A stretch of DNA of 64,000 bases from Clostridia bacterium. Lineage in GTDB: Bacteria; Bacillota; Clostridia; Christensenellales; CAG-138. The translations under genes were made by a program, and so were the position numbers. The notes beneath the pieces were generated by a model that was given only the letters and a program-made list of their open reading frames with translations, searched no databases and was not told the origin of the DNA. Position 1 is the stretch's first letter, and every line of letters begins with the position of its first letter. Positions 880 through 44,572 of this stretch are shown here, piece by piece. Location: NCBI GenBank assembly GCA_017395105.1, contig JAFPWD010000004.1, positions 21,143 through 85,142 of the forward strand, read 5' to 3'.

Positions 880-1003
880 TGATTCAAAAAGGTTCTGCGG
901 GCATTAGCCCACAGGGCAACTCGGTTGAGCCCACCTTTTCGGTGGGCTCAACTGGAATTCCGGCAAAATTACGCGGTTCCGGAACCGCGAGAGGGTGGTA
1001 TAC

Positions 1004-1993: not shown

Positions 1994-2005
1994 GGAGGTA
2001 CTTTT

Positions 2006-4246
2006 ATGGCTAAAGAGAATAAAGCTATTGAGCCTAACAAGAACGAAGAAGTGCTCCAGGAAAAAGAGCAGCTGGCTCTCGATGACGCGCGCCGAGTTAA
2101 AGTGCTTTCACCCGGTATGCTTGTTTTCAAGCGTTTCATCCGCAACAAGCTTGCCGTTATCGGTATCATCATTCTTGTCTTCATGTTCATCTTCTCCTTC
2201 CTCGGACCTCTCTTCTCCCCCTACGGGATATCTCAGGTCTTCTTTAAGGAAGTTGACGAGCCCGGCGATTATGCAACGGGTAAATACGTTGAAGGCTCCC
2301 TTTTCTACCCCAGCAACAACGCCGCGCTGAACTCCGCAGTGCTCAAGACACTCGGCGAGAATAAGGTTGCGGGAAAATACTCTCTGATCGCCGGCGAGGA
2401 GATCCCCTTTGCAGCCGGCAGCAATCACTACACTCTCAAGGTCATCAACCCCGACCCCGATAAGCCGAGCTGCGCCGTATACGGCACCACTCATATCGCA
2501 ACCGCTTCCAAGGGTGAAGTAAAGTGGTATGACGAAAGCTTCGTAGACGAGGCTCTGCTCGTTGCTATCACGGAGAATGCCGCTCAGGATAAGCCCGGCA
2601 CCGAGCTTGCGTGGGACGGCATGACCATCTCCATCGAGTCCGACAGGTTTGAAACCAAATACTACGCTCCCTCCAGCGAGCCCGTTGCGGTAACTTCCTA
2701 CAGCAGCTATTCGCCGCTTCTTGGTCGCGTGGGCGAGCTTCAGGCGGACACCGCTTTCCTGCATGACATTGCTTCGGCGGTCAAGGCAGGGGAGACCTCC
2801 GTTACCCGCGAGGGCGAGACCTACAACCTCACCGGTGACGCGATCAGCGGCTTAGTCCTCTCTTCGAGCGACGGCACTCCCCTTATGAACGTTGTCCGTG
2901 AGTTCATCTCCAAGTCCGTAAAGCTCGAGGAGCAGGATAAGGACGGCAACCCGGTCACCAAGGATAAGGATTTCCTTTCCCTCGTTTCCGATTCCAAGGC
3001 ATTCATTGAGGCCGCAAAGCAGGCTGTTGCCGAAAACGCCAAGGAAGTGGTTTTCGAAGACACGAGCTACGAGATCACCGAGAACGGCAACGAATACCTC
3101 ATCCTCAATACCGACGGTCAGATCGGCATGACGGTAGTTACCTCATTCGATCCCGTCGAGAGCAAATACGATTCCCTCAGCTCGGATTTCAACTTCATCA
3201 ATGCGATGGAGACCGCGATCGCTTCCGGCGCATCCACCTTCGAGTATGACGGCGAAACCTATTCCTATGCTGACGACAACGGCAGCTATTCCGCAAAGAA
3301 TTCGGCCGGTGAGGACGTTGTTCTTGCTTCCAATATCGTTTACGGCCCCGCCAAGAACGGTATCGAGCTTACTGCGGACTTTGCAAACAAGCTCCGCGAG
3401 GCGATCGTTGGCAAGCAGAATAAGTTCACCTTCGTAGATCAGTACGGTGAAGAGACCGAGGCTCAGATCGAGCTCAAGGTCGGCAACTACTACGTCAAGA
3501 CCATGCAGAAGACCTCCCTCTTCGATCAGAGAGCGCCTATCACTGCTAAGCATCTTCTCGGCACCGAGAACAACGGTATGGACGTTCTGACCCGCCTTAT
3601 GTACGGCGGCCGCGTATCGCTTATCGTTGGCTTCGTTGTAATCTTCTTCCGACTCATCATCGGTGTTGTCATCGGCGGTATCTCCGGTTATTTCGGAGGC
3701 GTTGTGGATACGATCCTGATGCGCTTTGTTGAGCTGTTCAACGCCATCCCGTTCTATCCCATGCTTATCATCATCGGCTCCGTTATGGATAATCTCCGCG
3801 TTGGAGCGACCCAGCGTCTGTTCATGACGATGGTGCTCCTCGGCGTTCTCGGTTGGACCGGTATCGCGCGTATCGTTCGCGGCCAGATCCTCTCCCTCCG
3901 CGAGCAGGACTTCATGGTTGCAACCGAAGCGACCGGTATCCGCACCAGCCGCAGGATCTTCAAGCATCTCGTTCCCAACGTTATGCCTCAGCTTATCGTT
4001 AATGCGACCAGTGCTCTTGGTGAAATCATTCTTACCGAGGCAACGCTCGGCTTCCTCGGTCTCGGTGTTAAGTACCCGATGGCATCCTGGGGCTCGATCA
4101 TCAACCAGGTCAACGATATGCAGGTCATGCAGACCGCGTGGTGGATCTGGATCCCCGCCGGCTTGCTCATTCTGTTGACGGTTCTCGGCTTTAACTTCGT
4201 TGGCGACGGTCTCCGCGATGCGTTCGACCCGAAGATGAAGCGCTAA
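2006..4246 (+). CDS. Peptide ABC transporter permease, OppC/DppC type, with a very large extracytoplasmic insertion after TM1 (746 aa)
   Basis: RBS AAGGAGG precedes the start. N-terminal TM (LAVIGIIILVFMFIFSFLGPLF). The C-terminal ~235 aa are canonical OppC (HLLGTENNGMDVLTRLMYGGRVSL ... GLRDAFDPKMK). The residues in between have no permease character. Confidence 0.85.
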   Translation: MAKENKAIEPNKNEEVLQEKEQLALDDARRVKVLSPGMLVFKRFIRNKLAVIGIIILVFMFIFSFLGPLFSPYGISQVFFKEVDEPGDYATGKYVEGSLFYPSNNAALNSAVLKTLGENKVAGKYSLIAGEEIPFAAGSNHYTLKVINPDPDKPSCAVYGTTHIATASKGEVKWYDESFVDEALLVAITENAAQDKPGTELAWDGMTISIESDRFETKYYAPSSEPVAVTSYSSYSPLLGRVGELQADTAFLHDIASAVKAGETSVTREGETYNLTGDAISGLVLSSSDGTPLMNVVREFISKSVKLEEQDKDGNPVTKDKDFLSLVSDSKAFIEAAKQAVAENAKEVVFEDTSYEITENGNEYLILNTDGQIGMTVVTSFDPVESKYDSLSSDFNFINAMETAIASGASTFEYDGETYSYADDNGSYSAKNSAGEDVVLASNIVYGPAKNGIELTADFANKLREAIVGKQNKFTFVDQYGEETEAQIELKVGNYYVKTMQKTSLFDQRAPITAKHLLGTENNGMDVLTRLMYGGRVSLIVGFVVIFFRLIIGVVIGGISGYFGGVVDTILMRFVELFNAIPFYPMLIIIGSVMDNLRVGATQRLFMTMVLLGVLGWTGIARIVRGQILSLREQDFMVATEATGIRTSRRIFKHLVPNVMPQLIVNATSALGEIILTEATLGFLGLGVKYPMASWGSIINQVNDMQVMQTAWWIWIPAGLLILLTVLGFNFVGDGLRDAFDPKMKR

Positions 4247-4258
4247 GGAGGTAATATT

Positions 4259-5413
4259 ATGGCAAAGAGAAAAGGCGTTAATTATATCTCCAGGAAAGAA
4301 TCCGCAAGGATCTCCCGTGAGAATCGCAAGATCACGAAAGCGATCGAGAAAAAGCGCAATCGCAGACACGTCGATCCTTCCGAATACCTGACCAAGATGC
4401 GTGATGACAACAACGTCGTCGAGTTCGACAACGTTCACACCTTCTTCTTCACCGATATCGGCACCGTTCGCGCTGTTGACGGCGTTTCCTTCGAGGTTCC
4501 TCAGGGAAGCACCGTGGGTATCGTTGGCGAATCCGGCTGCGGCAAGTCCGTAACCTCCCTTTCGCTGATGCAGCTCGTTCAGCGTCCGCAGGGTCAGACC
4601 GTTGAAGGTCAGATCCGCTTCAACGCGGGCGACGGCAAGGTGTACGACATTGCAAACACCCCCACCAAGGTCATGCAGACCCTTCGCGGCTCCAAGATCG
4701 CGATGATCTTCCAGGAGCCCATGACCTCGCTCAACCCCGTTTTCCGTATCGGCCAGCAGCTCAACGAGGTTCTCGAGCTGCACTATCCCGATTGGACGGA
4801 TGAGCAGGTCAAGGCGCGCACCATCGAAATGCTCAAGATGGTCGGTATCGCAAACAGCGAGGGCGTATACATGATGTATCCGCATGAGCTCTCCGGCGGT
4901 ATGCGTCAGCGCGTTATGATCGCTATGGCGCTTGCCTGCGACCCGAAGCTCATCATCGCAGACGAGCCCACCACGGCGCTTGACGTTACCATTCAGGCAC
5001 AGATCCTCGACCTGCTGCGCACCCTCAAGGATCGCATCAATTCGAGCATCATGCTCATTACCCACGACCTCGGCGTTATCGCCGAGATGGCAGACTACGT
5101 TGTGGTCATGTACTCCGGCCGTATCGTTGAGCGCGGTACCGCAAGCGAAGTGTTCCACAATCCCTGCCACCCCTACACCATCGGTCTGATGGCTTCCAAG
5201 CCCGTTGTCAACCGCCGCGTTGACCGCCTTTACAGCATTCCCGGTTCCGTTCCGAACCCGGTCAATATGCCCAACTACTGCTACTTCCGCGATCGCTGTG
5301 AGAAGTGTGTGGATAAGTGCAAAGGCGAATACCCGAAGGAGATCTATGTCAGCCCGACCCACATGGTAGCCTGCTACCGTTACGAGGACTATAGGGACAA
5401 GAAGGAGGACTAA
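4259..5413 (+). CDS. Peptide ABC transporter ATP-binding protein, OppD type
   Basis: Walker A GESGCGKS, signature LSGGMRQR, Walker B IIADEPTTALD, Cys-rich oligopeptide C-terminal domain. GGAGG RBS. Confidence 0.93.
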   Translation: MAKRKGVNYISRKESARISRENRKITKAIEKKRNRRHVDPSEYLTKMRDDNNVVEFDNVHTFFFTDIGTVRAVDGVSFEVPQGSTVGIVGESGCGKSVTSLSLMQLVQRPQGQTVEGQIRFNAGDGKVYDIANTPTKVMQTLRGSKIAMIFQEPMTSLNPVFRIGQQLNEVLELHYPDWTDEQVKARTIEMLKMVGIANSEGVYMMYPHELSGGMRQRVMIAMALACDPKLIIADEPTTALDVTIQAQILDLLRTLKDRINSSIMLITHDLGVIAEMADYVVVMYSGRIVERGTASEVFHNPCHPYTIGLMASKPVVNRRVDRLYSIPGSVPNPVNMPNYCYFRDRCEKCVDKCKGEYPKEIYVSPTHMVACYRYEDYRDKKED

Positions 5414-5415
5414 CC

Positions 5416-6516
5416 ATGGAAGCTGTCGAAAAAACCAAGAAAGCTGCCGAAGAAGTCAAGGAAAAGGTCCAAGAAGTTAAAAAGACCACCTTCGAACAGC
5501 TCGAAGAGAGGATCCAGAGCGTTAAGAACGAGCCCCCGATCCAGCATGATCCCTCAAACGTTCTTGAGGTTCACAACCTTCTCAAGTACTTCCCGATCAG
5601 AACAGGTCTGTTCTCCCGCATCACGGGCTATGTTCGCGCTGTTGACGGCGTTTCCTTCAACATCAAGCGCGGCACCACGATGGGTCTTGTTGGCGAATCC
5701 GGCTGCGGTAAAACCACCGTCGGTAAAACCATCCTCAGGCTCACAGAGAAGACCGCGGGTCAGGTACTCTTCAACGGCACCGAGATCCACGATCTGCCCA
5801 AGTCCGAGATTCGCAAGATCAGGCCGAAGATCCAGATGATCTTCCAGGATCCGTACTCCAGCCTTTCGCCCCGTCTGCCCATCTCGGAGATCATCGGCGA
5901 AGCGGTTCGTGAGCACAACATCATCCCGCAGAACGAGATGGACGACTATCTCGATAAGGTCATGAAGCAGTGCGGTCTGCAGCCCTACCATAAGGATCGC
6001 TATCCGCACGAGTTCTCGGGCGGTCAGCGCCAGCGTATCTGCATTGCGCGCTCAATCGCTCTGAAGCCCGACTTCATAATCTGCGACGAGCCCGTTTCGG
6101 CGCTTGACGTTTCCATTCAGGCTCAGATCATCAACCTGATGATGGATCTTCAGAAGGAACTCGGCCTTACCTATCTGTTCATCTCCCACGACCTCTCCGT
6201 TGTTGAGCATATCTCCGACACCATCGGCGTTATGTACCTCGGCAACATGGTCGAGTATGCGGATAAGGTAAGCCTGTTCGCCAAGCCGATGCATCCCTAT
6301 ACCGAGGCGCTGTTCTCCGCGATCCCCGTTCCCGATCCGGACTACAAGATGAACCGCGTTATCCTTCAGGGAAGCATCCCCTCTCCCGCAAATCCGCCCA
6401 CGGGTTGTAAGTTCCATACCCGCTGCTCCAAGTGCATGGGCATCTGCGGTGAGGTTCCCCCCGTTGCAAAAGAGGTCGAGCCGGGTCACTTCGTTGCCTG
6501 CCACCTCTACGACTGA
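5416..6516 (+). CDS. Peptide ABC transporter ATP-binding protein, OppF type
   Basis: Walker A GESGCGKT, signature FSGGQRQR, Walker [20 protein letters not shown]; starts 3 nt after oppD. Confidence 0.93.
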
Positions 6517-6525
6517 GATTCGTAA

Positions 6526-6804
6526 ATGGCTAAGATACAGAAACAATATGATGACGACGACGGGCGCACCATCGCCAATATGAACGTCGAAGGTATGCCC
6601 TGGTACGATAAGCAAATGAAGCGCGAAAGCCGCGCTCAGGCGCGTGCCGAGCTTGCCGACCGCGTTGCAAGGGGCGATGCTCTCACGACCCGTGAAACCC
6701 TCCGCTACGGCCTGTATGCCGTGCTCGCCGGTCTCACCGTGGTCGGCTTCATCGCCGGAGGTGTCTGTTTGATTATACTGATACTGTATCTGCTTTGGAA
6801 GTAA
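6526..6804 (+). CDS. Small hypothetical protein with a C-terminal transmembrane helix (92 aa)
   Basis: ORF 10 nt after oppF with host-like codon composition and a C-terminal hydrophobic segment (LYAVLAGLTVVGFIAGGVCLIILILYLLW). No clear SD and no recognised family. Confidence 0.45.
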   Translation: MAKIQKQYDDDDGRTIANMNVEGMPWYDKQMKRESRAQARAELADRVARGDALTTRETLRYGLYAVLAGLTVVGFIAGGVCLIILILYLLWK

Positions 6805-6859
6805 GCTGCCATTCGGCAATCAACTCATCATTTTCTGCACAAGTGTGCTACCCTAAACG

Positions 6860-6893
6860 AAGGGCGGTCATCCTCGGATGGCCGCCCTTTCGG
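6860..6893 (+). terminator. Rho-independent terminator candidate ending the opp operon
   Basis: GC-rich hairpin AAGGGCGGTCATCC / GGATGGCCGCCCTT followed by TTT. Confidence 0.6.
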
Positions 6894-6973
6894 GTCTATA
6901 TTCGTTTTGTTGAGGTTTGCTGCAGAGCGGAACCTTGCGCTTGGCATTAATGCGGAGCAGGGGGGAGAGGAAA

Positions 6974-7003
6974 CAAAAAAAGCCTTGCAAAGCAAGGCTT
7001 TTA
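6974..7003. terminator. Bidirectional hairpin terminator downstream of tRNA-Thr
   Basis: AGCCTTGC-AAA-GCAAGGCT, flanked by an A7 run on one side and TTTTA on the other. Confidence 0.7.
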
Positions 7004-7006
7004 TGT

Positions 7007-7082
7007 TGGAGCTGGTGATCAGATTCGAACTGACTACCTCGTCATTACCAATGACGTGCTCTACCTACTGAGCTACACCAGC
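7007..7082 (-). tRNA. tRNA-Thr (anticodon GGU), CCA encoded
   Basis: The reverse complement reads GCTGGTGTAGCTCAGTAGGTAGAGCACGTCATTGGTAATGACGAGGTAGTCAGTTCGAATCTGATCACCAGCTCCA. This gives a 7-bp acceptor stem, D-arm AGCTCAGTAGGTAGAGC, anticodon loop TTGGTAA, and T-arm GTTCGAATC. Confidence 0.93.
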
Positions 7083-7098
7083 GTGCCGAACGAATTGT

Positions 7099-7127
7099 AT
7101 TATAGCGGAAGTTGACATCATTTTCAA
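7099..7127 (-). promoter_or_regulatory. Sigma-70-type promoter for tRNA-Thr
   Basis: Minus strand reads TTGAAA, 17 nt, TATAAT. The -10 element ends about 16 nt upstream of the mature tRNA 5' end. Confidence 0.55.
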
Positions 7128-7281
7128 GCCCTTTTCACCATTAACTATTATATATTTGCGTTTGCGTATGACCAATGCTCATAATTCACCTTGTTCGTGT
7201 ATAAATTTCTTCCGCACTGCGCTATTGAGGTATATTTTGAGCATTATACCGAAAATGTACTTAAATGTTCACAAATCCGCC

Positions 7282-7310
7282 TTGAAATTAGACGAATATT
7301 GAACTATAAT
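7282..7310 (+). promoter_or_regulatory. Sigma-70-type promoter upstream of the VanW-family gene
   Basis: TTGAAA (7282-7287), 17 nt, TATAAT (7305-7310), inside an AT-rich intergenic region. Confidence 0.5.
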
Positions 7311-7352
7311 GTATTCGTAGCAAGATGCTTTTTTGCGATTGAAGCTTGAATC

Positions 7353-9077
7353 ATGCGTACTGTGAGGGGAAAAACATTGGAAACTGATTATGTGGTAAAT
7401 AAACCGTCCGCTTTTAAAGGTGCCGAAGTATCTGCGCTGAGCGTTGAGGATAAAAGCATGCTGTGGCGTATCATCAGGATAGGCGTTTATTTTCTGGTGA
7501 TAACCGCTGTCTTTGCGTATATCTATTTTTCAACTAAGACTCTGCGCGAGAGATTCGTTGCCGCCGAGCAGGAGAATGATGAAAACAATCAATACACCGT
7601 TACCGATCTTGCAAGCGGCGGTATGCTTGTCAAGGGCAAGTCGAACGGCATTGATTACGAATACATTGAGGACGGCAGGATCCTCAATGGGGTCAGAGTT
7701 GCCGGTGTCGATTTGGGTGGCATGGACTATGCTCAGGCTCGCGAGGCGCTGCTCAACGACGTTGAAAAAAGGATCGCCGATATCAATATCTGCGCAAACG
7801 TCGAGAATACTACGATGCTTCTCACCGCAGCCGATTTCAACGTCTCCTGTGACGTGAACCCGCTGCTCCACGAGGCATTCAAGGTTGGCAGGGAGAGCGA
7901 GCAGACCGATTTCTATTCCGTTTATCTCGAAAGGCAGAGGATCGCCGAGGAGGGCGTTGAGCTTGGCGATTACGAACTCACTATGGATGAGGAGAGCATG
8001 CGAGCGATCGTCGATGAGATCGGCGAAATGGTGGATAAGTCGCCCACAGAGCCCTATATCACGCTTCTGAATCTCGTTGGCGGCGGTAAGCCCGGCGTTG
8101 GTATCGGCGGCAGGACGGACGATCTTGCTTCCGTTAAAACAGTCTATGCGCCGAATGGCACCGCAATGGCCGATATCCAGTTCCATAACGGGCATAACGG
8201 CTACGTGCTCAATAGGGAGGACATGCTTAAAAAGATCTGCAATGCGTTCTACTCCGGCGAACATAATGCGGAGCTTATTCTCGAACTCGAGGAGACCGAG
8301 CCCGAATATACCGCCGCTGAGCTCGCCGCTTCCTATACCGAGCTTTCAAGGTTTTCAACTCGCTTCTCATCAAGCGGCGATTATCGCGCCCGCAACGTTC
8401 AGAAGGCTGCGGGACTGCTGCACTGCGTTGTGATGCTTCCGGGTGAGGAATACGGCTATAACGACCTGCTTGGCCCGCGCTACGAAAAGGACGGCTGGCT
8501 TCCCGCGCCCGGCATCTCCGGCGGCAAGGAGTATATCGACAGCCCCGGCGGCGGCATCTGCCAGGTCAGCTCCACGCTCTACAATTCGCTGCTGCTTATT
8601 GGGGAGGATGCCAAGATAATCCGCAGGTATCATCACTCCATACCCGGCAGCTACATCGATATGGGTCTGGATGCTACCGTTTCCTACGGCGGTCCCGATC
8701 TTGTTTGGAAGAATACCACCGAAACGAGCATGCTGCTGTTTGCCTATGCCGATATGCGCAACCGTACCGTTTATTCCATCATCTACGGCGTACCGCGCGA
8801 GGATGGTCACACCTTTAAGGTTTGGTCGGAGATTGTTGAAGAGGTCGAGCCGCCAGAGCCCCTCATCATAGAGGAGCCGATGTGGCCGAGCGGCTACTCC
8901 AAAATGGTCATAACTCCGCGAACCGGCTATAACGTGGACGTGTTCAGGCAGGAATACGATGCCGACGGCAACCAAGTGGGCGAGCCCGTGAAGCTGTATC
9001 AGGATAAATACGCGGCCGTTCAGGGCGAGAAGCATGTCGGTACCGGCTCGCCGTCGCTCCCGATCCCGCAGGGCTGA
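7353..9077 (+). CDS. VanW-family protein with N-terminal membrane anchor
   Basis: N-terminal TM (IIRIGVYFLVITAVFAYIYF). VanW core is unmistakable (PGEEYGYNDLLGPRY...GGGICQVSSTLYNSLLL...DATVSYGGPDLVWKN). The start is uncertain: ATG 7353 lacks an SD, and TTG 7377 follows GAGGGGA. Confidence 0.85.
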   Translation: MRTVRGKTLETDYVVNKPSAFKGAEVSALSVEDKSMLWRIIRIGVYFLVITAVFAYIYFSTKTLRERFVAAEQENDENNQYTVTDLASGGMLVKGKSNGIDYEYIEDGRILNGVRVAGVDLGGMDYAQAREALLNDVEKRIADINICANVENTTMLLTAADFNVSCDVNPLLHEAFKVGRESEQTDFYSVYLERQRIAEEGVELGDYELTMDEESMRAIVDEIGEMVDKSPTEPYITLLNLVGGGKPGVGIGGRTDDLASVKTVYAPNGTAMADIQFHNGHNGYVLNREDMLKKICNAFYSGEHNAELILELEETEPEYTAAELAASYTELSRFSTRFSSSGDYRARNVQKAAGLLHCVVMLPGEEYGYNDLLGPRYEKDGWLPAPGISGGKEYIDSPGGGICQVSSTLYNSLLLIGEDAKIIRRYHHSIPGSYIDMGLDATVSYGGPDLVWKNTTETSMLLFAYADMRNRTVYSIIYGVPREDGHTFKVWSEIVEEVEPPEPLIIEEPMWPSGYSKMVITPRTGYNVDVFRQEYDADGNQVGEPVKLYQDKYAAVQGEKHVGTGSPSLPIPQG

Positions 9078-21901: not shown

Positions 21902-23293
21902 GTGTTGGAATATAAAAACGAAAACCGAATAATCGAACTTGAAATAACCTCCTACGGATCGGAAGGGCAGGGCGTTGGAAGGCTCGACGGGCTTGCCGTG
22001 TTCGTGAAGGGCGCGCTATTAGGCGAGCGCGTTCGGGCTCGGATCACCAAAACCGCTCCGCGCTTTGCCGAGGCAAGGCTTATCGAAGTGCTTGATAAAA
22101 GCCAAAACAGGCTTGAGCCCGCCTGCCCGAATTTCGATCGCTGCGGCGGCTGCGATCTTATGCACATGAACTACGCTCATCAGCTCGAATTCAAGCGAAT
22201 GAAGGTCGAAAACGCCTTTCGCCGCATAGGGAGCTTTGATAATATCGAGGTGCGCTCCTGTGCCGCCTCTGCGCAAACCCTTCGCTACCGCAATAAGGCG
22301 GTTTTCAGCTTCGCTCAGCAGGGCGCAAGGGTCATTTCCGGCACACTCGGCGAAAAGAGCCATTGGGTCATCGAAACCGCGGACTGCCTTTTGCAAAACG
22401 AAGCCTCGCTCAAGGCGCTTGAAACCGTAACGGAATGGGCAAACGATTTCGGCATCCCCGCCTATAACGAGAAAACGGGGAAGGGCGTGCTGCGCCATCT
22501 TGCGGTGCGCTCGACATGCACGGGCGAAATCATGGTTATTATCATCGCCGCCGCTCGATTAAAGAACGAAGCCGAGCTTGTTTCGCGCCTCGTTTCCGCC
22601 GTTTCGGGCATAAAGAGCATCGTTGTGAACCTCAACCGCGAAAGATCGAGCCTTATCATGGGCAGAAAAAGTGTTTTGCTTTGGGGCAAAGAAGCGATAA
22701 CAGAGCGCATACTCGGCATGGATTTCGCTGTCGCCGCCGAAAGCTTTTTGCAGATAAACCACGATCAGACTGAGCGGCTCTATTCCTTCGCAGTCAATTC
22801 GCTCGAGCTGAACAAAAACGATTCCGCCATTGACCTATACTGCGGCATAGGCACGTTATCCCTTCTTATGGCGAAAAGCGCCGGTAGCGTTACGGGCATA
22901 GAATATGTGCCTCGGGCAATAGAAAACGCGAAGAATAACGCCCAAGCAAACGGCATCAAAAACGCCGACTTCCATTGCGGCGCGGCGGAAAAGCTGCTGC
23001 CGGAGCTTGTAAAGAGCGGAAAGCGCGTTTCAAAACTGCTTCTCGATCCGCCCCGCGCTGGCGCGATGAAGCCCGCGCTCGATGCGATAATTAAATGCGC
23101 ACCCGAGCGCATCGCATACGTTTCCTGCGATCCCGCAACGCTTGCGCGCGACTGCAAGATCCTTGTAAATGAGGGCGGCTATGTGATAGAATGTATACAG
23201 CCGTTCGATATGTTTCCGCAGACGGAGCATGTGGAGTCAGTAGTATTGATGACGAGATCAATTGATTGTAAGTATGAAAACAATAGAAATTAA
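21902..23293 (+). CDS. rlmD: 23S rRNA (uracil-5-)-methyltransferase RlmD/RumA; last ~14 codons appear to be supplied by an inserted AT-rich element
   Basis: TRAM domain, Fe-S cysteines (CPNFDRCGGCDLMHM), SAM motif LLDPPRAG, YVSCDPATLARD and FDMFPQTEHVESVVLM. The composition changes abruptly after nt 23251. Confidence 0.9.
   Translation: MLEYKNENRIIELEITSYGSEGQGVGRLDGLAVFVKGALLGERVRARITKTAPRFAEARLIEVLDKSQNRLEPACPNFDRCGGCDLMHMNYAHQLEFKRMKVENAFRRIGSFDNIEVRSCAASAQTLRYRNKAVFSFAQQGARVISGTLGEKSHWVIETADCLLQNEASLKALETVTEWANDFGIPAYNEKTGKGVLRHLAVRSTCTGEIMVIIIAAARLKNEAELVSRLVSAVSGIKSIVVNLNRERSSLIMGRKSVLLWGKEAITERILGMDFAVAAESFLQINHDQTERLYSFAVNSLELNKNDSAIDLYCGIGTLSLLMAKSAGSVTGIEYVPRAIENAKNNAQANGIKNADFHCGAAEKLLPELVKSGKRVSKLLLDPPRAGAMKPALDAIIKCAPERIAYVSCDPATLARDCKILVNEGGYVIECIQPFDMFPQTEHVESVVLMTRSIDCKYENNRN
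23228..23251 (+). repeat. Direct repeat copy 1 (putative attL core) within the rlmD 3' end
   Basis: CATGTGGAGTCAGTAGTATTGATG. It matches 24198-24221 at 21 of 24 positions, and both flanking 9-mers are identical. Confidence 0.7.
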
Positions 23294-23322
23294 TACCAAA
23301 TATGATAGGAGAAAATACTATT

Positions 23323-24072
23323 ATGTATAATGAAAAGCTATCCGTTTTCTTGTCTCATTCTCATAAGGACGTTGAGAAAGTGAGAAGAATCAGAGATGTT
23401 CTTGAAACGCTTGATTGCGAACCAATTATTTTTTTCTTGAAGTGCCTTGACGATGACAATCCAAATCTTGAGGATTTTATAAAACAAGAGATAGCTGCAA
23501 GGAATGTTTTTTTATACTGCAAATCAAAAAACTCAGAAGAAAGCATTTGGGTTCAAAAGGAGATAGAATACATCAAGAGTTTGGATAAAAGTAGATTATA
23601 TACTGTCGATTTAGAGCAAGGATTTGCTATAAATCTGATTGAAGTGTTACAGTCCATTCTTTATCTTATCAATAGGAACACTGTGATAATCTGTTGTTCA
23701 GAACAAGATAAAGATCATTGTGAAAAAATAGCTCAAGCTCTCAATAAAATAGGATATGTAATAAATTTTTATCATCCTCAGCTAACAGGGATTCCTTCGA
23801 TGAAATCTCTTAAAGACTGGGAGTATACTAAACTTCATGATCAGTATGCTCACTATTTCGATACAGAAATAATTCCGCAAATGAAAAAAATAATGATGAA
23901 GGGAACGGTCCTTGTAATGGATAGTAAAACCCTATTTGATGGAGACTGGTCATCTTATATGATGGGAAAGTTTCTCAATTGGTGTAAAACGAATAATTAC
24001 AATGTTGTACACGCCACTCTTCAGTCAGACTTTACAGAAATTGTAAACGCCATCAATAAATTATCTATTTGA
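23323..24072 (+). CDS. Tandem TIR-domain protein (N-terminal TIR with candidate catalytic Glu; C-terminal degenerate TIR-like domain)
   Basis: VFLSHSHKDVEKVRRIRDVLETLDCEPIIFF...NVFLYCKSKNSEESIWVQKEIEYI fits the bacterial TIR pattern (FxSxSxxD ... S-x-W-x-x-E). The second half, TVIICCSEQDKDHCEKIAQALNKIGYVINFY..., repeats the beta-alpha layout without the Glu motif. ATG 23323 follows AGGAG; the track start is 23302. Confidence 0.7.
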   Translation: MYNEKLSVFLSHSHKDVEKVRRIRDVLETLDCEPIIFFLKCLDDDNPNLEDFIKQEIAARNVFLYCKSKNSEESIWVQKEIEYIKSLDKSRLYTVDLEQGFAINLIEVLQSILYLINRNTVIICCSEQDKDHCEKIAQALNKIGYVINFYHPQLTGIPSMKSLKDWEYTKLHDQYAHYFDTEIIPQMKKIMMKGTVLVMDSKTLFDGDWSSYMMGKFLNWCKTNNYNVVHATLQSDFTEIVNAINKLSI

Positions 24073-24090
24073 TGTTTAGGCTATATCTAC

Positions 24091-24164
24091 ATCTACGCTG
24101 TTGCCTCGACCGTTTTAGAAAGTGGAAACTAAGCCACGAGGGTGGATGAGTAATCAGCGTAGAT
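24091..24164. repeat. Nested inverted repeat / long hairpin downstream of the TIR gene
   Basis: ATCTACGCTG (24091-24100) pairs perfectly with CAGCGTAGAT (24155-24164). An inner pair is CCTCG (24104-24108) / CGAGG (24137-24141). A T-rich tract follows (ATTTTTATT). Confidence 0.6.
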
Positions 24165-24197
24165 AACGGCATTTTTATTCACGCCATTGTCCCAAGG

Positions 24198-24221
24198 CAT
24201 GTGGAGACACTGGTATTGATG
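24198..24221 (+). repeat. Direct repeat copy 2 (putative attR core); displaced rlmD-like C-terminal codons
   Basis: CATGTGGAGACACTGGTATTGATG. In frame it encodes HVETLVLM followed by SQA and a stop, mirroring HVESVVLM at the end of rlmD. Confidence 0.7.
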
Positions 24222-24271
24222 TCTCAAGCCTGAGTTGAGGCTACAGATCGGATATGTCTTGAGGAGAGAAA

Positions 24272-24643
24272 ATGAAAAGCATTATAGTAATACGAAAACG
24301 TTCTTTTGCTTCTGCACTTATGCCATATTGGATTGTGTTTTCCAAAATCCTTAAAACCGGTTTTTTACAATCACATGGATTTGTGGGAGACTTGTGTGAT
24401 CATGACAAATTTGGTCAGCCAATATCGAGAATTGAAGTCTCTGAACTCGATCAAATAGGAATACGTGTCAAAAATGGTCAGATTATGGAAGTTCCGGTTC
24501 CTGAAGATACTGTATCTGTTTTTGTTATTACTTTTGGCGGAAGCATATCAAATGAGTTGTTGATAGATGAAATAAACGACACTTTAACGATAACAACGAA
24601 GGGCGGCTTTAAGACCGTGAGTTATCCGCATATTGAGACTTGA
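24272..24643 (+). CDS. Hypothetical small protein (123 aa), AT-rich gene
   Basis: GAGGAGAGAA RBS 4 nt before the ATG. No recognised motifs; the alternating pattern looks beta-rich. Composition resembles the islet rather than the host. Confidence 0.6.
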   Translation: MKSIIVIRKRSFASALMPYWIVFSKILKTGFLQSHGFVGDLCDHDKFGQPISRIEVSELDQIGIRVKNGQIMEVPVPEDTVSVFVITFGGSISNELLIDEINDTLTITTKGGFKTVSYPHIET

Positions 24644-24656
24644 CACCAATATGTGA

Positions 24657-24764
24657 TCAACGGAAAGCGACTGCGAGCTTGATAATATTGATAGTTTGAG
24701 GTTTCACACGGCTTTGGGCTTTGAGGAAGCAAATCGGATCGTATGCTTTAGAAAGGAACTGTAG
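24657..24764 (+). pseudogene. Remnant of a GNAT-family acetyltransferase gene (C-terminal ~35 codons only)
   Basis: Translates to STESDCELDNIDSLRFHTALGFEEANRIVCFRKEL*. The N..S..F...LGF........F.K.L ending is a typical GNAT C-terminus. No upstream coding continuation: a stop lies at 24654-24656. Confidence 0.45.
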
Positions 24765-24901: not shown

Positions 24902-25558
24902 ATGAAATACGGAGATATAACGAACAATAAGGAAATTCAAAAGTATTATGAAAAGGGAAATGCCATACTTGCGGAGCTTGGGTATACCGATCATTCGGTT
25001 GCCCATACGACCATGGTGGCAAAGAAGGCCGCGGAGATACTCACCGCTTTCAACTATGATAAGCATGATATCGAGCTTGTGAAGATCGCGGGTTTTCTTC
25101 ACGACATCGGCAACGTTATAAACCGAAGCCATCATGCGGAGTACGGTGCGCTGCTTGCAAATGAGATCTTAAAGGAGGAGGACTTGTCCATCGCCGACCG
25201 TGTTCAGATCGTTTCCGCAATAGCGAATCACGATGAGTCCACCGGCGTGGTGTCCGATCCGATCACCGCTGCGCTCATCATCGCCGATAAAACGGACGTA
25301 AGAAGAACGAGAGTCAGGCGTAAGAACCCGATTCATTACGACATACACGACAGGGTAAATCACGCGGTAACGGAAACGAAGCTTGAGTGCATCCCCGAAG
25401 AGAAGCTCATAGTGCTTCACTTAACGATCGACGAAAGCTCATGCACCATGTATGAATACTTCGATATTTTCCTGTCGAGAATGACCATGTGCTCCCATGC
25501 GGCCAGATTTTTGGGCGCGGAGTTTTCCTTGAGGGTGAACGACCGAAAGGTGCTGTGA
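24902..25558 (+). CDS. HD-domain phosphohydrolase
   Basis: HSVAHTTMVAKKAAEIL...AGFLHDIGN...HHAEYGA...IANHDE (H...HD...H...D pattern). AAAGGAGGA RBS. Confidence 0.8.
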   Translation: MKYGDITNNKEIQKYYEKGNAILAELGYTDHSVAHTTMVAKKAAEILTAFNYDKHDIELVKIAGFLHDIGNVINRSHHAEYGALLANEILKEEDLSIADRVQIVSAIANHDESTGVVSDPITAALIIADKTDVRRTRVRRKNPIHYDIHDRVNHAVTETKLECIPEEKLIVLHLTIDESSCTMYEYFDIFLSRMTMCSHAARFLGAEFSLRVNDRKVL

Positions 25559-25600
25559 TTCCTGATTGGGAAAGAGCTCTTGCATCGGAGGATAACTCAA

Positions 25601-26062
25601 GTGAACAAATGGGATTCTTTACATGAACTTGCGCAAAAGCATCGCTTGGCTCTGACGACCGATAACGCCAAAGCGATACTGGCCGATCCGAAAACGGGAG
25701 AGCAAATTGAAGTTTTAGAGGAAAAATACTACCCGAAAAGAGATTCGATCACGGGCACGGAGGACGAAGCTTTCGTTGAATACATCGTTTATTTTTCCAC
25801 TTAACACGCGCATTTTGAGGATCTTGATGATGCGCTCGAGTATGTTGCGGCGATAATTGCGGACGAGGTGCTGCCCATCGAGTTCTATCTAAACGGAGAA
25901 GACTGCTTCGGCGGAGAAATAACACAAGCTGATTTTGAAGAGCTGTCGGACGAGCTGTTAGCTGCTGAATTCGGATATTTCGCTAAGGATCTTTCGCAAT
26001 TCGAATATGAGATCCATAGCTGGTCGGGACGGTATAATACCGAGCGCAGGCGAGTCGAATAA
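25601..26062 (+). pseudogene. Hypothetical gene interrupted by a single in-frame TAA (25802-25804); track ORFs 25580..25804 and 25868..26062 share one frame
   Basis: GGAGGA RBS, 8 nt, then GTG 25601. No other stop lies between 25805 and 25867 in the same frame. The second ORF has only a GTG start with no convincing RBS. The peptide reads continuously across the stop (IVYFST*HAHFEDLDDALEYV). Confidence 0.45.
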
Positions 26063-26105
26063 GGTTGAGCTCGATCAGCTCAAACGGTAAAAAAGGAGCA
26101 GACCT

Positions 26106-26474
26106 ATGGATGATTGGCGGTTAAACGGGCAGGAAAAGTATTTACAGGGTGTTACCTTGTATAAGATCGTATTTCCGCAGTTTTGGCTGAAAGCGGTTAC
26201 GGAAAGAAACTCATTTTACGAGATGATAGCTAATCGGGCACACCGTTTTGCCGAGCAGATGCAGCGTGGAGAAGAATATATCGAAGGCGATGAGATTCAG
26301 CACTTCTTTCATGAACATTGCGAGTTTTGCATGGAAAAAGTCACAATGGATAAAGAAGGCGAGTTTTACTGCACGACCGATATGCAGCATTGGGTATGCT
26401 CCGAATGCTTCAACGACTTTAAAGAGCGGTTTGGGTGGAATGTAGTACAGAATGAAGGAGAAAGCGGTGAATAA
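26106..26474 (+). CDS. Hypothetical cysteine-rich (zinc-ribbon-like) protein, 122 aa
   Basis: AAAGGAG RBS. HEHCEFC ... WVCSECF gives a four-Cys arrangement. Family not recognised by name. Confidence 0.65.
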   Translation: MDDWRLNGQEKYLQGVTLYKIVFPQFWLKAVTERNSFYEMIANRAHRFAEQMQRGEEYIEGDEIQHFFHEHCEFCMEKVTMDKEGEFYCTTDMQHWVCSECFNDFKERFGWNVVQNEGESGE

Positions 26475-26504
26475 AGCATATCGTTCCTGCTTAACAGTAG
26501 CAAC

Positions 26505-27191
26505 ATGATCGACATTTACGAATACATAAACAGCCTAATAACCGAGTGCCGCGCCGATTTCGGCGATAGGCTTGTTTACGTTGGCCTACAAGGCAGCTAT
26601 CTGCGCGGCGAGGCGAACGAAAACAGCGATATAGACATAATGTTTGTTCTCGATTCGCTTTCCGTGGCGGATATGGACAGATATCGCACCATACTTCTCA
26701 GGATAGGGCATTTTGAAAAATCCTGCGGCTTTATCTGCGGCAGGGATGAGCTGATGCGCTGGAATCCTTTGGAGGTATGCCAGCTCAAGCACACCACGAA
26801 GGATATTCTCGGATCGCTCGATGAGCTTCTGCCGCAGGCCGCGCGGCAAGATGAAGTGAACTACGTTAAATTCAGCCTCGGCAACCTTTACCACGAGCTC
26901 TGCCATCGCTATATCCATGCCGAGCGAAGCAAGAATGAGGCGAAGCTGCGGGGGAGCTGCAAGGCGCTGTACTTCCTGATACAGAATCTGCACTACCTTG
27001 AGAGCGGCGATTTCGTTCTTAAAAAGAGCGAGCTTATGGAGCGGGTCTCGGGTGCTGATCGCGAGATGCTTGCGATGGCTGAGCTTAAGGATGACTTTGA
27101 TTTCGACAAGGCGTTTTACTCCGTGTTTAATTGGTGTAAAAAGGCTTTCATTCGCATTGAATCAATCGAATGCAATCATACCGAAGATTAG
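26505..27191 (+). CDS. Nucleotidyltransferase-domain protein (Pol-beta superfamily; aminoglycoside/MNT-like fold)
   Basis: GLQGSYLRGEANENSDIDIMFVLD matches the G-S ... D-x-D NTase motif. A helical C-terminal half follows. Substrate unknown. Confidence 0.7.
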   Translation: MIDIYEYINSLITECRADFGDRLVYVGLQGSYLRGEANENSDIDIMFVLDSLSVADMDRYRTILLRIGHFEKSCGFICGRDELMRWNPLEVCQLKHTTKDILGSLDELLPQAARQDEVNYVKFSLGNLYHELCHRYIHAERSKNEAKLRGSCKALYFLIQNLHYLESGDFVLKKSELMERVSGADREMLAMAELKDDFDFDKAFYSVFNWCKKAFIRIESIECNHTED

Positions 27192-27202
27192 GAAATACAG
27201 AA

Positions 27203-27706
27203 ATGATTGATTTTATAAAATTCAGCAGCAAATATTTCGTTCGAAGCATGGATGAGCGGGATGCCGATCGCATACTCGCACTTTGCCGCGGCAATTCGCT
27301 GTTTTATGAATACGCGCAGGCGGAGCCCACTCTTGAGCAGGTGCTCGGCGATCTGCGCATAAGCCCGCCAGGCGTTGATATGCAGGATAAATACTATCTT
27401 GGCTTTTTCGATGGTAAAACGCTTGTTGCCGTTATGGATATTATAGACGGCTACCCTGAGCCTTCTATCGCGTTCATCGGCTTTTTTATGGTGGATGCGG
27501 CTCTTCAAGGGCGGGGGAATGGAAGCTTCATTATAATGGAAACGGAGGAATATCTGCGCTCGATCGGTAAAACCGCTATCCGCTTAGGCATCGATTCGGA
27601 CAATCCGCAGTCAAATGCATTTTGGAGAAAAAACGGATTTTTTACGATCGCCGAGGTCGATAATGAGGGGCATACGATACTTTTGGCCGAAAAAAGCTTT
27701 GATTGA
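27203..27706 (+). CDS. GNAT-family N-acetyltransferase
   Basis: FFMVDAALQGRGNGSFIIMETEEYL (acetyl-CoA Q/RxxGxG/A motif) and ...NAFWRKNGF. ATG 27203 follows AGGAAA, 11 nt after the stop of the preceding NTase gene (27191); the 27170 start given in the ORF track, which would overlap the NTase 3' end, is not the start used here. Confidence 0.8.
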   Translation: MIDFIKFSSKYFVRSMDERDADRILALCRGNSLFYEYAQAEPTLEQVLGDLRISPPGVDMQDKYYLGFFDGKTLVAVMDIIDGYPEPSIAFIGFFMVDAALQGRGNGSFIIMETEEYLRSIGKTAIRLGIDSDNPQSNAFWRKNGFFTIAEVDNEGHTILLAEKSFD

Positions 27707-27790
27707 CGGCGCAAATGTGCTATAATGCTATCGGACAGTACGGGTAAATGCAGAACCGATCAGTATGATTGCATTTTTAGGAGGTATAAA

Positions 27791-28117
27791 ATGGGATTTC
27801 GTGATTGGCTGAAGGCCAAAAAGAAAAAGCGCAGTCAGGAGCGCATGGAAAAGCTTCGGCAGGAGGAGCAGGCTGAGCGCAGCTTCGCTTTAACAGGCAG
27901 CGATTCGGGCTTTGCGGTTGACCCTGCGGATATTGATCCGCCAGAGACCCGCTTTACGGACGAGTACCGCGAGTTCCTCGAAAAGCAAGAGGCTGCGGCG
28001 GCGAAGGCCGAAAGGCTTGCGCAGGAGCGCTTGAGCGAGGAGCTCGAAGCCGATGCAGCAAAGGCGGCGGAGGAGGTTCACTGCGCCTGCGAGGAGTGCG
28101 CAACGGAGAACAACTGA
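27791..28117 (+). CDS. Hypothetical Glu/Ala-rich protein (108 aa)
   Basis: TAGGAGGT RBS before ATG 27791. Charged, low-complexity sequence with a C-terminal HCACEEC. Confidence 0.55.
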   Translation: MGFRDWLKAKKKKRSQERMEKLRQEEQAERSFALTGSDSGFAVDPADIDPPETRFTDEYREFLEKQEAAAAKAERLAQERLSEELEADAAKAAEEVHCACEECATENN

Positions 28118-43626: not shown

Positions 43627-44367
43627 TCAGCTCTCAAAAACCGCTCCTCCGAGTACCTCTCCTATGCTTTCGTTTATCACAAGATCGGCTCTTGAATCAT
43701 ACGGCGTTGCGCTCTTATTTATAAGCACGAGCCTGTCGCCGCGATAATAGTCGATGAGTCCGGCAGCGGGGTAGACCTGCAGCGATGTGCCGCCCACTAT
43801 CATCATATCCGCACGCATAACGTGCGTAAGAGCACCGTTCAAGCATTCGTGATCGAGCTGCTCTTCATATAAAACAACGTCGGGCTTGATGATGCCTCCG
43901 CAGGGGCAGTAGGGGATGCCCTTCGCAGAGCCGACATACTCCGCATCGAAAAACTTATGACATTTCATGCAGTAGTTGCGGTGTATCGAGCCGTGCAGCT
44001 CGTAAACCTTCTTGCTTCCGGCCATCTGATGCAGCCCGTCTATATTCTGAGTGATAACTGCTGTCAGCTTGCCGCGCGCTTCAAGCTCCGCAAGCGCAAG
44101 ATGTGCCTTATTCGGCTTTGCATCGGGCGAAAGCAGAAGCTCCTTATAATATTCGAAGAAGGTCTCGGTCTTGCGCTCAAAGAAAGTGTGCGAAAGCAGC
44201 TCCTCGGGCGGATAGCCGTATTTTCTTATCGCTTCGAAGATGCCGTTTGAGCTTCTGAAATCGGGAATGCCGCTTTCGCAGGATACGCCTGCGCCGCCGA
44301 GGAAAACTATCCTGCCGCTCTCATCGATCATCCTTTTGAGCATTTCGATCTTTTCGTTCATATCCAT
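43627..44367 (-). CDS. cobB: NAD-dependent protein deacylase (SIR2 family, CobB type)
   Basis: GAGVSCESGIPDFRS, TQNIDGLH and a zinc ribbon (CMKC...CPCGG). The start at 44367 follows GAGGTG. Confidence 0.9.
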   Translation of the reverse strand: MDMNEKIEMLKRMIDESGRIVFLGGAGVSCESGIPDFRSSNGIFEAIRKYGYPPEELLSHTFFERKTETFFEYYKELLLSPDAKPNKAHLALAELEARGKLTAVITQNIDGLHQMAGSKKVYELHGSIHRNYCMKCHKFFDAEYVGSAKGIPYCPCGGIIKPDVVLYEEQLDHECLNGALTHVMRADMMIVGGTSLQVYPAAGLIDYYRGDRLVLINKSATPYDSRADLVINESIGEVLGGAVFES

Positions 44368-44572
44368 AAGCCTGTATTCACCTCGCTGAATCAAATCAGT
44401 AAAGCGGACGAACCGCCATGCGAATATTATACCATTTCTTTGCCCGCTTTCCAATCCGAAACACAATGTAAATAAGGAAAAAATACGCAATATATAGTTT
44501 GACATAAATGGGTTTCGGGACTATAATTAAAGCATCGAATTCTTTCAATAAAACAGGTATTGGAGGTTAATT

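Follow-up and report, generated by a model that had tools for sequence, protein, structure and literature searches.

The 3' end of rlmD (23S rRNA uracil-5-methyltransferase) carries an AT-rich segment in the window, which here means the whole 64,000-nucleotide stretch of a Clostridia bacterium that we analyzed (assembly GCA_017395105.1, contig JAFPWD010000004.1). This segment is a real 970-bp insertion at a known recombination site, and it belongs to a widespread, apparently undescribed family of tiny recombinase-less gene cassettes that stack into integron-like arrays in rumen and gut Clostridia. The features of the locus, all on the forward strand, are as follows.

21902 to 23293, + strand: rlmD, native up to the GA at 23234-23235, with the last 19 codons plus the stop supplied by the insert.
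23228 to 23251, + strand: attL core (copy 1 of the direct repeat), with the inferred crossover dinucleotide GA at 23234-23235, within the GAG codon of HVE.
23236 to 23322, + strand: cassette left end, holding the replacement RlmD C-terminus (SVVLMTRSIDCKYENNRN, then a stop), a spacer and an AGGAG ribosome-binding site.
23323 to 24072, + strand: cargo gene for a 249-aa TIR protein.
24065 to 24197, + strand: conserved non-coding right-end "arm" of the cassette family, the presumed recombinase-binding attP-type half-site plus accessory DNA, containing the inverted repeat 24091-24107 / 24148-24164.
24198 to 24233, + strand: attR core (copy 2, with GA at 24204-24205), followed by the pseudo C-terminus TLVLMSQA and a stop.
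24206 to 24643, + strand: probable second cassette unit, with a standard leader of about 75 nt and ORF123 (24272-24643) but no arm at its 3' side.
24666 to 24764, + strand: remnant of a GNAT gene (the last 32 codons only), marking decay at the distal end of the variable region.

The observation of a direct repeat bracketing an AT-rich islet in the end of rlmD was confirmed. The repeat reads CATGTGGAGTCAGTAGTATTGATG at 23228-23251 and CATGTGGAGACACTGGTATTGATG at 24198-24221, identical at 21 of 24 positions, or 22 of 25 (23227-23251 and 24197-24221) if the preceding G is included. These are the only two matches in the 64 kb, and 0 were expected in 100 shuffles. Pfam found tRNA_U5-meth_tr, TRAM and methyltransferase domains in the rlmD product, whose ORF ends in HVESVVLMTRSIDCKYENNRN and a stop, while copy 2 reads in frame HVETLVLMSQA with its stop at 24231-24233. 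GC content falls from about 0.53-0.56 to 0.31-0.35 at 23250, and one gene lies between the repeats. The inverted repeat noticed earlier consists of 17-nt arms with 82% complementarity. No recombinase was found in the window: the ORF inventory looks housekeeping, tblastn with a large serine recombinase gave no hit, and Pfam on the 10 least obvious ORFs found none. However, three corrections to the original prediction apply. First, the low-GC stretch continues about 700 bp beyond copy 2, to roughly 24900. Second, the description of the cargo as a tandem-TIR protein is only half shown, because the C-terminal half is predicted to be a TIR-like alpha/beta fold with no significant sequence match. 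Third, the 24-nt similarity is not a target duplication; relatives diverge right after GTGGA, so only the GA is shared by recombination, and the rest is similar because both copies encode the same RlmD C-terminal motif.

The cargo protein has an N-terminal TIR domain (Pfam TIR_2, 1.9e-13; PADLOC ThsB-like hits) with a conserved SxWxxxE motif, in which W76 and E80 are invariant in 38 homologues; this glutamate is the catalytic residue of TIR domains. The AF2 model (pLDDT 84.7) shows a predicted C-terminal flavodoxin-like alpha/beta domain, and Foldseek with the model matched the TIR domains of SPARTA and MyD88, in agreement with a TIR fold. Although these features fit a Thoeris ThsB-type protein, there is no adjacent ThsA (SIR2 or Macro plus SLOG) effector, since the neighbors are rlmD and ORF123, which has no Pfam or PADLOC hit, and the only SIR2-family gene lies 20 kb away. 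We also considered ORF123 as a partner of the TIR protein and rejected it, because it is unrelated to the gene downstream of the 68%-identical TIR homologue. The exact TIR cassette of the window was seen only in this one genomic context.

By comparing six relatives with 85-94% identical RlmD (the window and the loci L196, L003, L198, L197 and L001; loci compared here are designated L with a number), we found that they are colinear and identical up to CATGTGGA, reading through GAGCATGTGGA, and then diverge. Each carries different content: a TIR protein, a 249-aa unknown, an MBL-fold protein, a 284-aa unknown, a TPR protein plus a beta-lactamase-fold protein, or an ICE. The point of divergence is the GA crossover in the GAG codon of rumA, which, with serine recombinases as the agents, is published (PMC4120198; PMC5704250). 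That relatives might instead share the segment as ancestral sequence had been named beforehand as a refuting outcome, and it did not occur. No empty site was found among six relatives of the window lineage (the site in L002, with 70% identity, is ambiguous), so excision and an empty attB are not demonstrated.

The original prediction treated the islet as a decayed island or a minimal satellite mobilised in trans, and missed that the roughly 135 bp left of copy 2 form a conserved non-coding arm. A pattern derived from this arm found 95 metagenome loci and one IMG/VR locus, and an nhmmer profile built from 80 arms found 132 strong copies, up to five per contig; copy 2 of the repeat sits at the end of a 166-nt match to this family (E=1e-35), and no second arm occurs in the window. 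The arms are about 135-150 bp long, and their last ~55 nt are nearly invariant across hosts whose flanking GC ranges from 0.41 to 0.70. The arm was not found in the plasmid or phage collections searched. Unlike the right end of published rumA elements, the arm is not the 3' end of a serine recombinase gene: the frame into copy 2 is open for only 16 codons, only 1 of 97 arms ends a long ORF, which is a lipoprotein-like cargo, and the arm peptide and arm profile hit almost only 29-145-aa orphan ORFs and no recombinase in 5.8e9 and 1.84e9 proteins. A structured RNA or attC-like hairpin was also rejected, because Rfam gave nothing relevant and RNAalifold on 55 arms gave -1.66 kcal/mol with no consensus structure and no compensatory pairs.

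Forty distinct core-to-core units share one plan, namely a leader, a same-strand ORF and then the arm. The longest ORF is on the rlmD strand in 40/40, 33/40 have a single ORF of at least 90 aa, the median core-to-ATG gap is ~66 nt, the median stop-to-arm gap is ~6 nt, and the median unit length is 857 nt. The units often form arrays, including five consecutive single-gene units in 2.7 kb. The cargo is mainly GNAT acetyltransferases and small unknown proteins rather than defence genes, with methyltransferases, NUDIX, TIR and DUF proteins also present, and no unit carries a recombinase. A universal leader motif was rejected, since the CTCGAGCCGGGG-GTGACTACAG type occurs after only ~10 of 130 distinct cores. 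The 75 nt from copy 2 to the ORF123 start codon align colinearly with the leaders of the L183, L140 and L197 units (79% mean column identity, start codon in register), and sister strains end in HVETVVLLSTITETVVSMHD and a stop before the conserved HD gene. HVETLVLMSQA is therefore probably not the ancestral rlmD end, contrary to the original prediction. The GNAT remnant downstream is 78% identical to the C-terminus of a 149-aa GNAT in L145 (E=1e-17).

The same cassettes recur in unrelated hosts. The GNAT164 cassette occurs in L176, L116, L115, L166 and L149, and both its boundaries fall at the GAG although the left flanks are unrelated (true rlmD, an arm, or pseudo-rlmD fragments); it is 89-94% identical while the adjacent rlmD genes are barely alignable. 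In L176, the rlmD stop codon overlaps the cargo ATG. Likewise, the TIR266+arm module is 98.9% identical in two hosts with different rlmD, and an IME in L111 (MobV relaxase, truncated large serine recombinase) carries the same arm at its right end. Arm-core junctions are followed by ICE-type "tail" left ends in several loci, as accretion would produce, and tandems of a cassette followed by an ICE/IME tail exist as static sequences in L117, L143 and L095. In the window, no + strand terminator was predicted between rlmD and the cargo gene.

According to the above-described analysis, the interpretation in the original prediction is partly supported: a site-specific insertion at the rumA/rlmD 3' hotspot, a replacement C-terminus, the absence of a nearby recombinase and a defence-type TIR cargo all held, whereas a one-off decayed island is not supported. 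We consider it somewhat more likely than not that window 23236-24205 is a non-autonomous, single-gene integrative cassette. In this view, recombination at the GA joined rlmD to the cassette's left end, which re-supplies the last RlmD codons, a stop and a ribosome-binding site, and the TIR gene is followed by the arm abutting a second GTGGAG core. The cassette would be integrated, excised or exchanged in trans by a large serine recombinase of a co-resident rlmD-targeting ICE or IME, with arm plus core acting as the attP-type site. Because every cassette's left end imitates the rlmD terminus, each junction would stay recombination-competent, which would allow arrays to build up, and the cargo is probably co-transcribed with rlmD. 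Our data show the insertion at the published crossover, membership of a large arm-bearing family with a rigid architecture, the arrays, the recurrence of the same cassettes in unrelated hosts and the absence of a linked recombinase, while the recombinase class, trans-mobilisation, read-through expression, recombinase binding by the arm, and NADase or defence activity of the TIR protein are inferred. Several results weigh against this view. No intact recombinase was found in any arm-bearing locus or in the window, and searches upstream of rlmD in other hosts and next to arms returned only the truncated copy in L111. No empty site was seen, and self-comparisons of all loci revealed no circular junction or tandem permutation. 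Published rumA elements carry their recombinase gene at the right end reading into the core, which these arms do not, and the exact TIR cassette of the window was seen only in one genomic context. Some cargo modules also change context at points that are not the GA: TIR266 homology starts 29 nt upstream of its ATG, and cassette M in L110 and cassette C in L164 are joined to upstream genes without a core.

Passive decay remnants (CIMEs) remain a serious rival, although we judge them the less likely explanation. Each unit would be what is left of a full ICE or IME that integrated at rlmD and lost everything except its att sites and the cargo gene next to its right end; arrays would arise by repeated accretion and deletion, and the units would no longer move as units. 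The CIME concept and accretion at attR are established (PMC5704250). The L111 IME has TIR266 as its last gene before the same arm, and the solo TIR266 unit in L107 shares only the segment starting 29 nt upstream of the ATG, as an internal deletion would leave. The truncated serine recombinase in L111 suggests that decay is frequent, and truncated "tail" ORFs, pseudo-rlmD fragments and the window's arm-less ORF123 plus GNAT stump all show ongoing erosion. However, random deletions should not give the uniform strand, ORF number, leader and stop-to-arm gap of the 40 units, nor five consecutive single-gene units in 2.7 kb, nor the same cassette with identical GAG boundaries after unrelated left flanks, and the near-invariance of the arm's last ~55 nt also speaks against it.

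Exchange by homologous recombination seems still less likely. Here the cargo between two conserved anchors (rlmD on the left, arm plus downstream DNA on the right) would be swapped between strains after transformation or conjugation, with no site-specific recombinase needed today. Consistent with this, strains with 100% identical HD protein carry different single units in the same slot, arms give about 150 bp of 85-95% identity, and fragments of foreign rlmD 3' ends travel with some cassettes. Yet it cannot explain the original insertions, the sharp GA boundary where the left flanks are non-homologous (rlmD versus arm), or the spread between hosts whose rlmD genes are only ~67% identical over a short stretch. 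Chance similarity or ancestral sequence has nothing in its favor beyond the shortness of the repeat and is refuted by the shuffles, the arm-family match ending at copy 2 and the different content in every close relative.

A bolder reading, which we hold only tentatively, is that rumen and gut Clostridia possess an integron-like gene-capture system built on serine-recombinase logic. The 3' end of rlmD would be the fixed entry site (the attI equivalent), and single-ORF cassettes would carry a ~150-bp arm (the attC equivalent) and a leader that rebuilds the RlmD terminus. New cassettes would enter at the rlmD-proximal position and be expressed by read-through or translational coupling with rlmD, the recombinase being supplied in trans by resident ICEs or IMEs, and the window's TIR unit would then be the most recently acquired cassette. 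Integron surveys are not known to have found integrons in Firmicutes. If these units are active, they are a second, mechanistically different way of stockpiling and shuffling single genes, including defence genes such as TIR proteins, in some of the most abundant gut and rumen bacteria, at a site already known for spreading antibiotic resistance through ICEs. The compact arm-core-leader sites could also define new serine-recombinase att pairs for genome engineering. Even if the units are inert, the family is a useful marker, as it explains why assemblies break at this locus and shows that the rlmD terminus is rewritten in nearly every lineage examined.

Literature searches for a prior description of such arrays found only the related concepts, namely the rumA hotspot, CIMEs, accretion and SCC elements. 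The rumA/rlmD-targeting serine-recombinase ICEs and IMEs (ICE-r, vanG elements, ICESp2905, IME_SpnAP200_rumA) use the same GA in the GAG codon of HVE, replace the gene's end in frame with element DNA and undergo tandem accretion. However, those elements are 8-100 kb, carry a large serine recombinase gene at the right end that lacks a stop codon and reads into the core, and carry transfer or mobilisation genes, whereas this unit is 970 bp with one cargo gene and no recombinase, and its right end is a non-coding arm with no detectable recombinase homology. Their left end is a start-less ORF of ~100-115 codons fused in frame to rumA, while the window adds only 13 codons after VVLM; the long tail (~100 codons in the ICE of L001, a relative of this very genome) is present in L001, L095, L111 and L143.

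CIMEs (cis-mobilisable elements of the ICESt1/ICESt3 type) are likewise bounded by attL and attR, lack integration and transfer genes, and are found in tandem with ICEs or IMEs at the same site (PMC5704250), but they are described as idiosyncratic decay products of particular ICEs, whereas here there is a large family with a shared arm, a uniform single-ORF design and multi-unit arrays. SCCmec, pseudo-SCC and ACME composite islands of staphylococci insert in the 3' end of an rRNA methyltransferase gene, rlmH (orfX), by large serine recombinases (Ccr), with direct repeats demarcating modules, recombinase-less modules in composite arrays and restoration of the gene's end (PMC7029136). With direct repeats and no recombinase, our unit is analogous to a pseudo-SCC only, and differs in the gene (rlmD), the hosts (Clostridia), the scale (single genes of about 0.5-1.4 kb against 10-60 kb) and its long conserved arm rather than an 18-nt direct repeat only.

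Integron gene-cassette arrays also consist of promoterless, same-orientation, mostly single-ORF cassettes separated by a family-specific repeat; both are rich in GNATs and small unknown proteins, sit next to a fixed chromosomal entry site and show cassettes shared between arrays. In contrast, there is no IntI tyrosine recombinase or attI/Pc module next to the array, the genes upstream of rlmD being dnaE, whiA, rapZ and murB, the arm has no conserved attC-like hairpin, and the crossover lies inside a protein-coding gene at a serine-recombinase-type GA.

The rlmD open reading frame reads FDMFPQTEHVESVVLM and then ends in TRSIDCKYENNRN and a stop codon. The core of 24 nucleotides recurs 970 bp downstream with an identity of 21/24, or 22/25 when the preceding G is included, and these two copies are the only matches in the window, with none found in 100 shuffles. 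The features that concern us here are arranged as follows.
21902-23293, the rlmD open reading frame
23228-23251, copy 1 of the core, CATGTGGAGTCAGTAGTATTGATG, with the GA at 23234-23235
23323-24072, the TIR gene, the only gene between the two copies
24065-24230, the stretch matched by the arm profile, starting right at the TIR stop codon
24198-24221, copy 2 of the core, CATGTGGAGACACTGGTATTGATG, with the GA at 24204-24205
24272-24643, ORF123, read here as a second unit
24666-24764, the last 32 codons of a GNAT gene
25580-28117, a run of small same-strand ORFs between the HD gene and the convergent MatE gene
Copy 2 encodes HVETLVLMSQA followed by a stop codon in frame. The GC content drops from about 0.55 to about 0.32 at 23250, but it stays low until roughly 24900, well past copy 2. 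The gene between the copies matches Pfam TIR_2 (1.9e-13) and ThsB-like PADLOC models, while a search of Rfam returned nothing relevant. These data confirm the repeat-bounded insertion that was described in the original prediction.

In order to place the insertion point, we aligned six members of the window's lineage (RlmD 85-94% identical, with the same murB-rapZ-whiA-dnaE-rlmD synteny) across the rlmD end. All of them are identical through GACGGAGCATGTGGA and diverge immediately afterwards, and each carries something different: the window carries the TIR gene, and of the other five loci, L196 carries a 249-aa unknown protein, L003 an MBL-fold gene, L198 a 284-aa unknown protein, L197 a TPR protein and then a beta-lactamase-fold protein, and L001 an ICE with a VirD4-like gene. 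Similarly, ten RlmD proteins of 79-94% identity have ten different sequences after HVE, apart from a repeated TVVLLSRK. Srinivasan et al. (PMC4120198) showed that vanG and ICE-r elements of streptococci, enterococci, and Roseburia insert at a GA inside the GAG codon near the rumA 3' end, and that these elements re-create in-frame fusions and carry large serine recombinase genes. The break seen here falls on that GA. Therefore, the 24-nt similarity, which the original prediction took for a duplication of the att core, is not a target duplication, and both copies simply encode the conserved (H)VExVVLM terminus.

The roughly 45 nt left of copy 2 are identical in L003 although the cargo differs; they are part of a conserved sequence that we call the arm. 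The pattern TTATTCACGC-N6-8-CCAAGGCANGNGGAG found one IMG/VR locus and 95 metagenome loci from rumen and human gut. A 190-nt nhmmer profile matches window 24065-24230 at E=1e-35 and gives 177 hits in the collected loci, of which 132 are strong non-redundant arms. The last ~55 nt before the core are almost invariant, while the distal half falls into subtypes, and the subtype of the window, with its 17-nt inverted repeat, recurs in the arm-bearing loci L141, L170, and L145. At about -95 to -55 before the core, the distal part of the arm consensus (GGCATATTCTTGACGTCGAGGGTCGTGACAACAG) resembles the 3' half of the rlmD core plus the common post-core leader (GTCGTATTGATGTCTCGAGCCGGGGCGTGACTACAG), suggesting that the arm contains a fossil of an earlier junction. 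The arm is absent from the plasmid and phage collections, and among 80 species-representative rlmD loci, only L003 carries one. More than one arm family uses the HVE core, because a second family, built from pseudo-rlmD fragments (GTGGATATGTTCC, AAAGTGCGAACAG), is present in L192 (385-5901) and L191 (1184-1330), two loci with homologues of the TIR protein, and separates units in a TIR-rich array; proteins of 250 and 525 aa are encoded in L192, and TIR proteins of 462 and 154 aa are listed for its sister contig.

The arm is not a recombinase remnant. The frame into the core is open for only 10-116 codons in 96 of 97 cases, and the single long ORF is a lipoprotein-like cargo; this 660-codon ORF, in the locus L126 (295-2320), reads through the whole arm and ends in the rlmD-type terminus (FIHAIVPRHVECVTLMTRK and a stop), and it is the only case of an arm translated as part of a long protein. 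A word-based search of 5.8e9 proteins returned only ORFs of 29-90 aa, and an exhaustive HMMER profile search of 1.84e9 representatives returned almost only ORFs of 37-145 aa, plus one 269-aa fusion and two weak repeat-protein hits, and no recombinase. The arm is not a folded element either, since RNAalifold on 55 arms gives -1.66 kcal/mol and no compensatory change.

In at least 18 loci the true rlmD core lies only 0.5-4.4 kb upstream of an arm-core, and many contigs hold several arms: five in 2.7 kb in L183, five in L132, and four in each of L098, L165, and L152. Forty distinct core-to-core units share a common plan. Their median length is 857 nt, against 970 nt for the unit in the window; the longest ORF is on the rlmD strand in 40/40 units, and 33/40 have exactly one ORF of at least 90 aa; the median gap from core to start codon is about 66 nt, and that from stop codon to arm is about 6 nt. 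The GC content is 0.34-0.52, often far below that of the host flank (for example, 0.37 against 0.66 in the L107 locus). Eighty-seven unique arm-adjacent proteins form 51 clusters with a median length of 173 aa. By Pfam, these are mostly GNAT acetyltransferases (at least 9 of the 48 cluster representatives scanned), together with methyltransferases, NUDIX, two TIR families, a GmrSD, MBL, PNP_UDP, and several DUFs, whereas few match defence models.

By comparing units between loci, we found that the same cassettes recur in different contexts. A cassette encoding a 164-aa GNAT occurs directly after true rlmD in L176, after an arm-core in L116, and after pseudo-rlmD fragments in L115 and L166, and in each case homology starts at the GAG on the left and ends at the GAG on the right. 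The cassettes are 89-94% identical over 673 nt, whereas the adjacent rlmD genes of L176 and L166 align only at 67% over 270 nt. In L176, the rlmD stop codon overlaps the cargo ATG. Four other recurrent cassettes (labeled Q, M, C, and T) are also found in different arrays and in different orders, and a module of a second TIR gene (TIR266) plus its arm is 98.9% identical in two hosts with different rlmD. Additionally, strains encoding a 100%-identical HD protein downstream carry different units, and many metagenome contigs with the identical HD-domain gene (window 24902-25558 and loci L086-L094) end 400-700 bp upstream of it; assemblies break at the variable cassette slot.

However, decay is also evident. 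In L111, a locus from a human-gut bacterium, a 7.6-kb IME (77-7700) is integrated in rlmD and sits between rlmD and an arm-core; it consists of a tail ORF, an N-terminally truncated large serine recombinase on the minus strand, an 885-aa helicase with an MZB domain, a MobV relaxase, a RhuM-like protein, an SMI1-like protein, and TIR266 as its last gene before the arm. The solo TIR266 unit in L107 shares with it only the segment that begins 29 nt upstream of the ATG. Cassette M in L110 and cassette C in L164 abut upstream genes without a core. In L108 and L111 (7700-7795), there is a miniature unit of 61-66 nt, in which the segment CTATTGTCCCAAGGCATGTGGAGACGGTT occurs twice with only ~40 nt between the copies, as if a cassette had been reduced to its junctions.

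In the window, the 75 nt from copy 2 to the ORF123 start codon align colinearly with three other cassette leaders, so ORF123 is probably a second unit, which lacks an arm and is followed by the GNAT remnant. Further downstream, the run of small same-strand ORFs at 25580-28117 (74, 64, 122, 228 [NTase], 178 [GNAT], and 130 aa) differs in gene content between strains whose HD protein is 100% identical, and one of them, ORF 26106-26474, is 68% identical to an arm-bounded cassette cargo in L130. We read this as an old, eroded array, and the run looks like one that has lost its arms. Sister strains end the last core with TVVLLSTITETVVSMHD and a stop codon before the conserved intergenic DNA, which is a better candidate for the ancestral terminus than the SQA terminus proposed in the original prediction.

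No recombinase was found in the 64-kb window, and none was found upstream of rlmD or next to arms in other loci, apart from the truncated copy in L111. An empty site, which the original prediction proposed to look for, was not found among the relatives compared, and neither circle junctions nor tandem permutations were found. The serine-recombinase assignment therefore rests on three things, namely, the published site, the L111 remnant, and the ICE in L001.

With regard to the cargo, the AF2 model (pLDDT 84.7) shows two alpha/beta domains. The predicted N-terminal domain matches the SPARTA and MyD88 TIR domains, and its SxWxxxE motif is invariant in 38 homologues, while the predicted C-terminal domain is a four-stranded beta-alpha domain with only a hint of TIR_2 similarity (E=0.16). 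A 68%-identical homologue sits directly after rlmD in an Oscillospiraceae MAG (L191), flanked by a 30-nt direct repeat but with a different arm type, and a 69%-identical homologue lies in the TIR-rich array with pseudo-rlmD arms (L192). A 46%-identical homologue (L193, 5001-5813; also L194 and L195) sits directly after cmr6 in a type III-B CRISPR-Cas locus with an RT-Cas1 fusion, which suggests that this TIR family can act as a CRISPR accessory effector. The exact protein of the window was seen only in this one context. A SIR2-family protein (43627-44505, minus strand; Pfam 4.5e-50) lies 20 kb from the TIR gene; it is probably a housekeeping deacetylase and is mentioned only because SIR2 effectors partner with TIR proteins in Thoeris.

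According to the above-described analysis, we consider, with moderate confidence, that the best explanation is a trans-mobilized single-gene cassette belonging to a new, widespread arm-bearing family. The insertion at the published GA, the conserved arm, the shared architecture, and the recurrence of cassettes are seen in the sequences themselves, whereas the recombinase class and the mobilization in trans are inferred. The main rival, that the units are inert decay remnants, seems less likely but draws on the erosion seen in L111, L107, L110, L164, and the window. The interpretation given in the original prediction is partly supported.

The attachment site, the serine-recombinase elements that use it, and the CIME concept are already known; what is apparently new is the family of single-gene units with a common arm, and literature searches found no description of such arrays. 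The site and the logic match rumA-targeting serine-recombinase ICEs and IMEs, but three of the four defining features of those elements are lacking. Formally, the unit is a CIME (PMC5704250), and it is also analogous to pseudo-SCC or ACME modules at rlmH (PMC7029136). Meanwhile, the array organization and cargo resemble those of integrons, but there is no IntI and no attC hairpin.
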